A stretch of 64,000 nt of DNA from Octopus vulgaris (Eukaryota): the NCBI GenBank assembly GCA_951406725.2, contig OX597824.1, forward strand, positions 51,832,001-51,896,000. The letters are read 5' to 3'. The translations under genes and the position numbers were made by a program. Below, in pieces: positions 9,394-63,488 of the stretch (positions are counted from its first letter, which is position 1; every line of letters starts with the position of its first letter). The notes beneath the pieces were generated by a model that was not told where the DNA came from, made no database searches, and was given only the letters and a program-made list of their open reading frames with translations.

Positions 9394-9484
9394 ATTTCAT
9401 TCTACACGTGTTTCGAAAGGCACAATTTACCAAAATCCGATTGAATAATGAGACCATATTGTGTCTTTCTCTTCAGGAAGAAAT
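9394..9484 (-). ncRNA. Type I hammerhead ribozyme with canonical core and long stem II
   Basis: Minus strand reads AUUUC-UUC / CUGAAGA / GAAAGACACAAU..AUUGUGCCUUUC / GAAA / CACGUG / UA / GAA-U-GAAAU; GUA site predicts cleavage between 9403 and 9402. Confidence 0.8.
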
Positions 9485-9729
9485 AGGAAATCCGTTGGAA
9501 AAAACAAAAACAGAACAGAGGCGGAGCAAAACAAATCGAACTAGGCTCCTAAGAGCCCATGGCAAATGTTTATCAGTGTATGTTGAGAACCGGTGGTTGA
9601 AGATTTTAACGGGTCAGGCGGCGGTCATTCCTGTGGGTGGGGGTGTGTAGATGTTCTTTGTGACCGAGAATAAAGTTCTGACTATTTAAAGAATATTGGA
9701 TGTATTATAAGGGGCGAGAAAAATATCTA

Positions 9730-9960
9730 AGTACGAAAATAAACAAAAGACGAAGGCAGGTGGTGTACAAAACAAACAGATGTATTAGTATAGCACTGAG
9801 GAATAGAAAAAGTCTTTTACGTTTCGAGCCTACGCTCTTCTACAGAAAGGTACACAGAAAAAACAAGGAGAGAAACAAGGAGAGAAACAAGGAGAGAAAA
9901 AAATGTGTGTAGTGGCTAACGATCTATCATGGCGTCTGACTCGGACAAAATGGTCAGACG
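9730..9960 (-). mobile_element. Short Penelope-like non-autonomous unit with a minimal hammerhead (9814-9849, core CUGUAGA)
   Basis: Homologous to 17604-17793 (+) and 29519-29714 (-); CUUU-CUGUAGA-A-GAGC GUAG GCUC-GAAA-CG-UA-AAAG. Confidence 0.7.
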
Positions 9961-10311
9961 GGAGGGGGAAAATAATAATAATAATAATAATAATGAGAGA
10001 GAACGGGAGAACGATCAAGCGGATTATTATGTGTGTGTGTGTGTGTGTCTGTCTGTGTGTGTTTGTGTGTGTGTGTGTAGAGAGAGAGAGAAATAAAGAG
10101 AGATGTTAAAAGATAGATAGTTAGATAGATACGTAGGTAGACAGACAGGCAGACAGACAGACCAATAGATAAACAGACAGACAGGCAGACAGACAGACAG
10201 ACAGATAGATAGATAGATAGATAGATAGATAGATAGATAGATAGATAGATAGATAGATAGACAGACAAACAGTCAGACGTAAAGGCCTAAGGTAGAATAA
10301 AAAGAAACATA

Positions 10312-10770
10312 AGGCGGCGAGCTGGCAGAAACGTTAGCACGCCGGGCGAAATCCGTAGCCGTATTTCGTCTGCCGCTACGTTCTGAGTTCAAATTCCGCC
10401 GAGGTCGACTTTGCCTTTCGTCCTTTCGAGGTCGATAAATTAAGTACCAGTTACGCACTGGGGTTGATGCAATCGACTTAATCCGTTTGTCTGTCCTTGT
10501 TTGTCCACTCTGTGTTTAACCCTTTGTGGGTAGTAAAGAAATAGGTATTTCGTCCGCCGTTACGTTCTGAGTTCAAATTCCGCCGAGGTCGACTTTGCTT
10601 ATCGTCCTTTCGGTGTCGATAAATTAAGTACCAGTTACGCACTAGGGTCGATATAATCGACTTAATCCGTTTGTCTGTCCTTGTTTGTCCCAAGTACCAG
10701 TTGCGTACTGTGGTCTATCTAATCGACTGCCCCACCTCCAAAATTTCGGGCTTTGCCTTGAGTAGAAAAA
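10312..10770 (+). mobile_element. Tandem family-1 SINE array (one full copy + internal re-duplications)
   Basis: GGCGGCGAGCTGGCAGAAACG (A box), GAGTTCAAATTCC (B box), body repeated. Confidence 0.9.
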
Positions 10771-60059: not shown

Positions 60060-61270
60060 TAATGGATAAACTTTTCTTTCTATTTCTAATAGTCCAAAAG
60101 CATTACATAACCATGCACTTAATTTCCTTACTCAACATAAGGAGTGAAATAATGAAATGTTGCAGACACCAGAATAAATTGCTTTTAAAAACTTCTCTGA
60201 ACCGTAAACATCCGATGATAAAACAACGGAACTCGAACGGGAGGCACAAAATGTCAGGACCATTGGAATAATAAAACAAATTAACCCAGGGTTAAAAATG
60301 ACAGTTAAGTGACATCAAGCATCAGACATCAGATATAAAATGCAATTCTTATAGAATGTCAAAAACATCTTTCAGAGACTTCAGATATAAATTAACAAAT
60401 TTATGAAGAAGACACAACGGCAACATTTGTTAGCTAAATAAGAGATGAGTGACTTAATCAAAGACAGCTACTAAACCGGCCAATAACTAAGTGATAAATA
60501 AACAATTCGAGCAAAACAAGACATAGCTTAGCAAAACAGGATGTGTCTACTCAATTGATAAGTAAAATATACAGAAAAAATACTGAACTGCCCAATGTGA
60601 AGTGATATACAGATAACCAACAGCAAAGTCGATCAATGGAAAAGAAAAAAGAACCGAAGAAACAACACATTTATTTCTTTATTGCCCACAGGGGGCTAAA
60701 CATAGAGGGGACAAACAAGGACAGACAAAGTTAAGTCGATTATATCGACCCCAGTACGTAATTGGCACTTATTTAATCGACCCCGAAAGGATAAAAGGCA
60801 AAGTCGACCTCGGCGGAGTTTGAACTCGGAACGTAACGGCACATGTACCCACAAGGGGCTAAACACAGAGGTGACGAACAAGGACAGACAAACGGATTAA
60901 GTCGATTATATCGACCCCAGTGCGTAACTGGTACTTATTTAATCGACCCCGAAAGGATGAAAGGCAAAGTCGACCTCAGAACGTAGCGGCAGACGAAATA
61001 CCGCTAAGCATTTTGCCCGGCGTGCTAACGATTCTGCCAGGTCACCACCCTCCGCAGAAACAACACATTGGCATAGGAAACGACAACGATTGACAACGCC
61101 TTAATACAAGGACATTAGAAACCAGCCAATTAAAGCGATGGGTTTAGACAAAACAATGAAGTTGCTCCGATGTACGCAAAACTAATCCTAATTCCAAAAG
61201 AAGACCGTCCTCGCATGAAGTTCGTTCGTAGTTACGAGAAACTCAAGCCGCGAGATATAAGAATTCATCC
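60060..61270 (+). mobile_element. Penelope-like 3' end with a degenerate hammerhead (61210-61254), interrupted by a SINE dimer
   Basis: LLNIRSEIMKCCRHQNKLLL is the typical Penelope C-terminal motif; CUCGC-AUGAAGU..UCGUA/UACGA-GAAA-CUCAAG-CC-GCGAG. Confidence 0.6.
60672..61055 (-). mobile_element. Dimeric family-1 SINE with 14-bp TSD AGAAACAACACATT
   Basis: TSD at 60658-60671 and 61056-61069. Confidence 0.9.
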
Positions 61271-61539
61271 ATCCATCCATCCATATATACATACATATAT
61301 ATATATATATATATATATATATATATATATATATATATATACATACATACATATATATATATATATATATATATATATATATATATATATATATATATAT
61401 ATATACATACATATATATACACAAACATACACACACGCACACACACACACATCCACACACACTCACACACACACACGCACAATCTTGCGTTGTTTTCATG
61501 GGAATGTTTGGAGTCGGTAAACGAAAGAGGAGGAAGAAA

Positions 61540-62610
61540 ATGATGAGTAGGAGAGGGGCAGTGATGGCAGAATCAGTGTAGGAGGAGAAGAGGATTTCTA
61601 GGGAAGGTGAGGAGGAGTTGGTGTTGGTGGTGGTCATGAATCTGGAATTGGTGGTAGTAGAAGTAGTGTTGGTGGTGGTGGTAGTAGTAGCAGTAGGATA
61701 CATTTGGAGGTCGAAGAAATGATGGGGACTGTAGAGACAGATGGTGGTGGATGTAAAAGATGGATGCAAAAGTGGTTGGGGGTAGCGGAGGTCGTAGGTG
61801 TTGTTTGTTGGAGGTGTTGGTAGTGGGTTAGGTGTCGTGGTTGTGGTGGCGGTGGAGGTGATCGTAGTAGTGGTAGTGGTTGTGGTGATAGTGGTCAGGG
61901 TGGTTGAGGAGGTGGGTGAAATGTGAAAAAATATATTGCTAGTAGGGGAAACAGCTGAGTAAACAGAAAAATACAGTAATGTAGTAGTAGTAGTAGTAGT
62001 AGTTGTAGTGGTGGTGGTGGTGGTGGTGATGATGGTGGTTGTGGTGGTGTTGGTGGTGACTGTGGTGGTGGCGGCGGCGGCAGCAGCATTGGTGGAGATA
62101 GTAATAGCGGTAGTGGTGGTGGCGGTGGTGGCGACGGTTTTGATGGTGGTGGTGCTGGTGGCAGCGGTTCTGATGGTCGTGGCGGCTGTGGCAGTGGTGG
62201 TGGTGGTGGTGATGGTAGTGGTGGGGAAAATGGTAGTAATGGTGGAGCAGTATCGTTATAATGGCTTTGCTAACGATGGTTGCTTTAGTAGTGGCAGTGA
62301 TAGTAAAGTGGTAGAAATGATGTTGCGACGATGGTATACTTATGGATTTTTTATGTTTTGGGATTAGTGTGGTGACGGTGGTAGTAGTTACAGCGTAGAA
62401 GGTTGGGGTATAACGAATGTACGTTGGTAATAGGGAGTGCGATGGCTCTAATGGTGGGGTGGTTGTGACGGTATTTGCCGGGGTGGTGGTAATGGTGGTA
62501 ATGATGGTAGTGAAAGTGGTATAGTTTGATGGGATAGTAGTGGTAGTAATGGTAGGGATCATAATAATGGTATTAGTAGCAGTGGTGATGTTGTTTGTTA
62601 TGGTGGTATC
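61540..62610. repeat. G/T-rich cryptic trinucleotide low-complexity tract (GGT/GTA/GAT)
   Basis: Direct. Confidence 0.9.
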
Positions 62611-63442
62611 GGTGAGTTGATTTGTATTGGCGAAACCAGTAGACAGCCATGCGAAGTTGTAATTTCAATCTTTCTTTTCTCTAGCTCACCTCTCTCTCTC
62701 TCTCTCTCTCTCTCTCTCTTTATCTCTGTCTGCCTTCTCTGTCTCTGTCTGTCTGTCTCTCTTTCTCTCTCTCTCTGTCTCACACACACAGACACACGCT
62801 TCTTTTCTCCCCTCTTCATCGCCTCCATTGTTTTCCCACCATTTACCCTTCACCCTTAACTTTCTCTTGTTTTACATTCTCCACCAATCCCATACACAAA
62901 CGTATTGCATGTGTTTGAGTATGTGAATGAATGCCTCTATTCTGTTCTTGTACCTGTGTGTGTGGGTGTGTGTGTTACAGACGCTATACGTGTGTGCGTG
63001 TATGTGTGTTTGTATGTGTGTGAGAGAGGGGCGGATTTTTAAGTTATAAACGTGTACTTGGGAGTGCATTTATATATATATATATATATGAATGTGTATG
63101 TGTGTGAGTGTAAGTGTATGGTTTTGTGTGCATGATTGCCTTATGAATTTGTGCTTGTGTGCATGTACTTTTATTATGAATGTGTGTGTATTGCTATGCA
63201 TTTGAGCTATGGCTATGCGCATGTGAGTATGTTTGCATAAGAATAAACCTACATTGCAAACAGAGTCATGGAGCAAGATGTGAATAAAGACTAAAGACAT
63301 ATTGAAAGAGCGATGTACCGTCTGTTCTCGATTTGTCAAACCGTCAAAATATAGACTGAAAGCTAAGTTCTTGACGAATCGAGACAACATCATTTATTAT
63401 ATATATGTGGTGTTAAAAAAATAATTCTGTGAAGATTTTCAA

Positions 63443-63488
63443 GTTCCTGAAGAAAGTGTCGTATAACCGACAATGATAAGTTTCCAAC
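63443..63488 (+). ncRNA. Degenerate minimal hammerhead
   Basis: GUUC-CUGAAGA-A-AGUGUCG..CGACAAU-GAUA-AGUU-UC-CAAC (GAAA>GAUA, stem I broken). Confidence 0.4.

Follow-up and report, generated by a model that had tools for sequence, protein, structure and literature searches.

Hammerhead-shaped 3′ ends of Penelope-like elements in an Octopus vulgaris genome, including families with variant cores

A stretch of 64,000 nucleotides from the Octopus vulgaris genome (assembly GCA_951406725.2, contig OX597824.1, positions 51832001–51896000; the whole stretch is hereafter 'the window') carries numerous motifs that resemble the hammerhead ribozyme. We consider, with good confidence, that these motifs are the hammerhead-shaped 3′ ends of several families of Penelope-like elements (PLEs), whose copies are truncated at the 5′ end, often folded back, and scattered at (TA)n tracts. 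The units in the window are mostly of this kind and are not tandem retrozymes. A first-pass annotation had partly suggested non-autonomous retrozyme derivatives of PLEs; no unit in the window is a tandem retrozyme. The genome comprises 2.8 Gb in 227 contigs, and the window has a GC content of 36% with microsatellites abundant throughout.

Hammerhead motifs and their parent elements

About 15 type I hammerheads had been proposed in the window. All 15 sites were parsed and compared with copies of the same families elsewhere in the genome. Loci recovered by DNA search match the window copy best and are biased toward its subfamily; less biased are a sample of genomic blocks, genome listings of exact matches for families F and B, and B copies picked by their flank, all described below. 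Thirteen of the 15 sites are motifs or decayed copies of motifs, and the majority sequences of families A to G show the type I order of stem I, core, stem II, GAAA, stem III, NUH and stem I. Four sites (9394, 9814, 20278 and 39508) match their family majority and also pass a structure scan that leaves positions 3 and 8 free, with no pairing imposed between them; the core is fully canonical at 9394 alone. Seven sites (17665, 29609, 39939, 40270, 40441, 42810 and 42877) are damaged copies of real families, whereas 17399 and 18081 are probable decayed relatives, judged from weak local similarity (79% over 47 nt and 79% over 34 nt).

The remaining two sites do not support a hammerhead fold. At 61210, A9 is replaced by U, U16.1 is missing and stem III is non-palindromic, and at 63443 neither stem III nor NUH is present; a genome search with each returned one candidate, the site itself. 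A search of Rfam gave no hammerhead family among the best 150 of 345 rows, these rows being microsatellite matches to microRNA models. The mostly palindromic stem III that had been noted is evident in the family majorities (CACGUG, CG, CAGCUG, CCGG, CGUACG and AUAU), and the CAUAUG of the earlier list is likely a CpG-decayed form of the CGUACG found in other copies of the same family. The G10.1-C11.1 pair is present in families A, B, C, F and G, with A-U in D and U.U in E.

Families A, D and F each have upstream of the motif one open reading frame (ORF) that encodes a reverse transcriptase (RT) and, at the C terminus, a GIY-YIG endonuclease. The family A 3′ end at 9341..9731 (minus strand, with boundaries read from the sequence and its copies) is truncated at the 5′ end and ends at (TA)n. 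It includes an intact hammerhead at 9395..9483 (minus), recognized by scan, parse and predicted dimer fold, with a CUGAAGA core, a long stem II and the palindrome CACGUG. A family B copy (9732–9940, minus) lies directly at the 5′ junction of this element. Family A is young (42 of the 46 matches listed are 100% identical over 171 nt), its motif lies 668 nt behind an intact 908-amino-acid RT and GIY-YIG ORF at locus L203, and the ORF is found in 18 of 30 loci. The family D hammerhead at 39939..39972 (minus) has the U3-A8 core UUGAAAA that occurs in 26 of 30 copies, a CCGG stem III, and a change of U16.1 to C that is seen here. Its family motif is located 198 nt behind a decayed ORF; decayed RT/GIY-YIG sequence adjoins the motif in seven of 30 loci, four of them with this sequence upstream and in the sense orientation, and Pfam gives a weak GIY-YIG match for one fragment.

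Family F looked at first like a fixed 345-bp palindrome. In the window it forms a fold-back unit at 42672..42997 (no strand assigned) in which two 3′ ends of a Neptune-like element face each other in inverted orientation; about 57 extra nt form a tail on the long arm of the unit. The hammerhead at 42810..42860 (minus), identified by parse, has the G3-C8 core GUGAACA plus an extra G and an AUAU stem III, but its stem I 5′ strand is lost and a local duplication stands in its place. The G3-C8 hammerhead at 42877..42927 (plus), identified by parse and fold, retains an intact 7-bp stem I and has C11.1 changed to G. Among 28 family F copies picked by the tail alone, an inverted arm is present in 17 and absent from 11, and 14 of the 17 inverted arms end 53–60 nt short of the long arm. 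Relative to the tail, the loop at the centre of the fold-back is found in either orientation (L002, L010 and L015).

An upstream 27-mer common to two family F copies has 674 exact matches in the genome, and 12 of 30 loci picked by this 27-mer have an endonuclease ORF upstream in the sense orientation. In five longer loci the motif lies 971–1001 nt behind the end of the ORF; the open frame reaches 671 amino acids, and ORF regions are 97–99% identical between copies. Between the window unit and the 3′ end of an ORF-bearing copy (L334), identity is 91%. An intrinsic 5′ hairpin marking the start of a short F master element was considered and ruled out, as the 674 exact matches run upstream into ORF-bearing copies. 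Atlas neighbours of both long ORFs (families A and F), at 0.97–0.98, carry HTH_animal, RVT_1 or GIY-YIG domains. Thus, the description of the units as Penelope-like and non-autonomous stands in its first part, since they are PLE ends, but families A, D and F terminate autonomous elements and not only short derivatives. Inverted 5′ copies, a one-sided tail and (TA)n targets are all present.

The other supported sites belong to families B, C, E and G. Family B contributes a hammerhead at 9814..9849 (minus) that equals the family majority, with the core CUGUAGA (an A6U change) and an extra A, and two damaged A6U copies at 17665..17700 (plus, A15.1 changed to G by family comparison) and 29609..29644 (minus, G12 changed to A by parse). 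Family C is represented at 39508..39621 (plus) by a hammerhead with the core CCGAAGA (a U4C change), a long stem II and the palindrome CAGCUG, as in 24 of 25 copies. The probable decayed hammerhead at 17399..17475 (plus) resembles this family and has a G3.G8 mismatch and a stem III, CGGCUG, that is no longer palindromic. Family G has a U4C hammerhead at 20278..20312 (plus) with the core CCGACGA and an extra A, as in 19 of 25 copies, and a probable relative at 18081..18116 (minus), also with CCGACGA, that has decayed through the loss of G12 and U16.1. Family E is old and is present twice: at 40270..40366 (minus), where the core is CUGAUGA, as in 17 of 30 copies, and stem II closes with U.U, and at 40441..40537 (plus), an inverted and more decayed copy (72% identity to the first) with a G3.G8 mismatch and A15.1 lost.

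The genomic density of the motifs was estimated from 100 blocks of 10 kb at round coordinates, or 1.0 Mb in all, and the chance level from eight shuffles of this sample. The scan returned 49 matches, comprising 22 with UGA at positions 4–6, eight with CGA, 10 with UGU and nine others. The shuffles yielded four UGA-core matches in total (0.5 per Mb) versus the 22 in the real sequence. These 22 motifs fall in 13 of the 100 blocks, giving a density of about 22 per Mb with a bootstrap range of 9–41 per Mb, a range that would correspond to roughly 25,000–115,000 UGA-core motifs per genome. The scan undercounts motifs, since the stems of family D are too short for its filter and the family is rejected. 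The window itself has five scan matches, and 15% of resampled 64-kb draws reach at least five; the motifs are real, but the window is ordinary for this genome and does not merit the term 'swarm'. The reported proximity to (TA)n is confirmed, with (TA)5 or longer found within 250 nt downstream of 11 of the 13 supported sites versus 19% of random positions (p about 8e-7).

The 3-8 pair and the variant cores

Written as N3-UGA-N-N8-A, the core carries a C-G pair at 3-8 in families A and E, U-A in D and G-C in F. These are family-fixed states, as had been proposed: U3-A8 is found in 28 of 30 family D copies and G3-C8 in 108 of 119 family F arms. Among the 22 UGA-core matches of the block sample, which were unconstrained at these positions, 17 are C-G, two G-C, two U-A and one mismatched. 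That 21 of 22 are Watson-Crick paired supports selection on the tertiary 3-8 pair in master elements. Clustering of 283 matches over all fetched loci produced 34 clusters, and by hand count those with UGA cores comprise about 15 C-G, five U-A, one G-C and two mismatched (approximately 21 of 23 paired); family D is a further U-A family outside this table, as it fails the filter. The five U3-A8 clusters are found among loci L229, L255, L093, L195, L044 and L145.

Covariation at 3-8 had been read as evidence of selection for catalysis. It is present between families but not within them. Family F, the only G3-C8 lineage among the 34 clusters, has 6,424 exact genome matches to its core, and of 100 listed 93 are G-C, seven are mismatched and none is C-G. 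A C3-G8 sister is thus absent from family F among the 100 matches listed and the 119 arms, and the 11 arms that are not G-C have single changes. In contigs from four runs that bear the labels of four organisms, no alternative letter reaches 5% in the F core; one run barely covers the core, and the result is given little weight. Four runs presumed to be RNA contain contigs that span the F motif, but contigs show no RNA ends and do not bear on expression or cleavage. The nearest approach to a swap is seen when the tandem family at L208 (C3-G8) is set beside the family at L229 and L255 (U3-A8); the two are 81% identical over 27–32 nt of the motif and have flanks that are not alike.

Single copies do not bear out the earlier inference, as substitutions in the F core are at the neutral level (24/1258 versus 356/13839 in the downstream sequence, p 0.16). 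Moreover, selection on the motif is no proof that it cleaves: hammerhead mutants of the one PLE tested still inserted in vitro (PMC11167929).

The cores described earlier as CUGANGA include five sites that carry A6U or U4C, and the fixed nature of these changes had been overlooked. C4 is present in 25 of 25 copies of family C and 23 of 25 copies of family G. Given that families B, C and G depart from the kept U4/A6, we class them as variants rather than canonical members. A relative of family G with a canonical CUGAAGA core (L226:7082, minus, 74% identity) implies that U4C is probably derived. Further U4C cores with different stems are found at L237 and L350, and U4C may have arisen several times.

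Family B is the most abundant, with 14,929 exact matches to a 30-mer in which positions 6 and 7 are free. Among the 100 matches listed, U6 is found in 96, and N7 is U in 42, A in 25, C in 18 and G in 11 by hand count. Picking copies by the 3′ flank alone yielded 35, of which 29 reach the motif; seven of these lie outside the subfamilies. There are four subfamilies of 4–9 copies each, and the majority N7 differs in each. When the subfamily majorities are compared, three of 36 motif columns vary versus 25 of 88 flank columns (p 0.017), the three being N7, N17 and one CpG site; excluding N7 and N17 leaves one of 34 versus 25 of 88 (p 0.001). On this small sample, the A6U motif appears to be held across the four B subfamilies with a pattern of freedom like that of a hammerhead. 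An RT fragment at L050:1501-2909, inverted and 28–33% identical to the family A protein, adjoins one of 30 B copies, and could be the coding partner of family B or a chance neighbour.

Elsewhere in the window is a near-intact long interspersed nuclear element (LINE) at 22617–25310 (plus), with an uninterrupted frame of 897 amino acids that has endonuclease and RVT_1 domains; a scan match within this ORF at 24082 (U3.C8, CGA) was taken as chance. Broken frames at 36579–37899 and 54545–55328 (plus) are ones that we take to resemble mariner transposases. Fragments at 4082–4441, 6289–6639, 47776–48105 and 58381–58952 resemble elements that lack long terminal repeats (non-LTR elements) and are of the restriction-like-endonuclease type, and (AAT)n tracts adjoin them.

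A proposed cycle and its alternatives

The structures described above are those that would result from a cycle whose steps are likely by analogy with PLEs reported in PMC11167929 and PMC8557442. The element's endonuclease would nick TA-rich DNA, and reverse transcription would begin at either of two sites, about 60–190 nt downstream of the motif, to leave a one-sided tail. Reverse transcription would usually halt early and often turn back, thereby creating an inverted copy. Master elements would keep the fold with any Watson-Crick pair at 3-8, as is seen between families, and the hammerhead would probably cleave slowly, either as a dimer joined by its palindromic stem III or when helped by the protein of the element. 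Inserted copies would afterwards decay neutrally, as is seen for family F.

Predicted dimers form stem III for families A, C and D. For the variant cores, we lean slightly toward the prediction that the G3-C8 motif cleaves slowly, as a dimer or with protein help, and we make the same prediction for the A6U motif more tentatively. That both cores cleave, perhaps only when assisted by protein, is a conjecture offered with similar reserve; a G3-C8 core in a young autonomous element and an A6U core held by selection across the four B subfamilies would then both be working cores beyond the natural range now known.

A number of observations weigh against this interpretation. Cleavage by these motifs is predicted from sequence and modelled folds. 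Structure predictions for family F do give stems I and II with an open core, which speaks for the interpretation, but predicted dimers lack stem III, AUAU being a weak helix, and pairing of G3 with U17 is possible in the predicted fold. Most F copies retain the whole motif together with the upstream sequence, and thus the copied RNA would have been mostly uncut at that site or re-joined. A change at A6 gives low activity (A6C; PMC3088659), yet the most abundant family has A6U, and its subfamily majorities rest on 4–9 copies each. When the fetched loci were queried with the A and D proteins over about 1.5 kb, families B, C, E and G yielded no coding partner. Pfam and PDB sequence searches gave the long A and F ORFs no name, and the clade labels Neptune (F) and Hydra (A) are provisional assignments from motifs recognized by eye.

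One alternative is that master elements keep the fold for a non-cutting role, such as a structure bound by protein, with the variant cores dead or nearly so. The A6U and U4C families have indeed spread very well, and F copies retain what lies upstream of the cut site. Moreover, mutating the hammerhead of the anole PLE did not lower insertion in vitro, and the cut site did not coincide with the end of any read (PMC11167929). However, such a role sits poorly with the Watson-Crick 3-8 pair kept across families, and with changes in family B at N7 and N17, which are positions free in cleaving hammerheads. In the active core, positions 3 and 8 make a tertiary contact, and C3G rescues G8C (PMC8495972, PMC11167929). 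We regard a purely non-cutting role as unlikely.

Still less probable is a reading of the units as tandem, non-autonomous retrozymes that multiply via small circular RNAs. A tandem array does exist elsewhere in the genome (L208:2300-4550, contig C1:20000001-20010000), with units of about 359 bp and canonical hammerheads, five on one strand and two inverted, and it has the appearance of a genuine retrozyme; for families B, C, E and G, no ORF partner was seen in the fetched loci. This reading is at odds with the single or inverted units of the window, with the upstream continuation of families A, D and F into RT/GIY-YIG genes, and with 5′ ends that vary as in truncation. Finally, AT-rich repeats might match the motif by chance, and the unit at 42672–42997 might be a miniature inverted-repeat transposable element (MITE) of a DNA transposon. 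Two of the 15 sites do fail, and the F unit, with TA at its flanks, forms an almost perfect inverted repeat. Nevertheless, the excess of cores over shuffled sequence, the identity of the F arms as the 3′ end of an RT-bearing element, and the copies with no inverted arm largely refute this explanation, which we consider extremely improbable. Truncated, often folded-back PLE ends with hammerhead-shaped motifs remain the reading that we prefer.

Relation to known hammerheads and implications

The PLE hammerhead system is already known, as is natural U3-A8, both within PLEs (PMC4209133) and outside them (PMC3088659). Minimal type I hammerheads of metazoan PLEs cleave weakly as dimers (Cervera and de la Pena 2014, PMC4209133). 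The octopus motifs share with them the type I topology, a short palindromic helix III, many families per genome, an extra base between positions 9 and 10.1 in some families, and a predominance of single or inverted truncated copies. A U3-A8 family is also described there, with about 1,300 matches in Schistosoma Cercyon elements, whereas the fixed G3-C8 (one family), A6U (one family) and U4C (at least two families) seen here set the octopus apart. About 9,000 hammerheads are quoted for Xenopus in the same paper, fewer than we estimate here, but the descriptors differ.

As in the Neptune- and Hydra-type endonuclease-containing PLEs (Craig et al. 2021, PMC8557442), RT is followed by a C-terminal GIY-YIG domain, and inverted 5′ copies, a one-sided tail and a preference for (TA)n are observed; the F tail is about 57 nt versus 30–40 in those elements. 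In the anole Poseidon PLE, reverse transcription starts at two internal sites, giving rise to a tail (Frangieh et al. 2024, PMC11167929). The hammerhead of this element cuts only with the protein, and its cleavage is dispensable for insertion in vitro. An engineered C3G/G8C change partly restores Poseidon cleavage; G3-C8 is a laboratory mutant there and the natural state of a young family here. Animal non-LTR retrozymes (bioRxiv 10.64898/2026.07.22.740005) likewise have type I hammerheads in short PLE-derived units, but are defined as tandem repeats with at least two hammerhead units, unlike the single or inverted units of the window. Perreault et al. 2011 (PMC3088659) report U3-A8 from nature, together with an A6C variant that is slow and a U4C variant from a viroid; the passages considered do not name the natural G3-C8 and A6U present here.

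In the literature searched, neither G3-C8 nor A6U turned up as a natural state, although earlier work on PLE variants or supplements may list these two, and nothing on the present motifs in octopus came to light. Lunse et al. 2017 reportedly describe PLE hammerhead variants and may already list G3-C8 and A6U, and Przybilski and Hammann 2007 are said to have studied 3-8 exchanges.

The one PLE tested could insert even when its hammerhead did not cleave. The octopus genome supplies a matched set of natural cores (C3-G8, U3-A8, G3-C8, U4C and A6U), two of them with near-intact cognate proteins, and therefore both protein-assisted cleavage and the need for cleavage become directly testable. If the G3-C8 and A6U motifs do cleave, the descriptors of natural hammerheads would need to be widened, and searches for CUGANGA would overlook such motifs by the tens of thousands in a genome.

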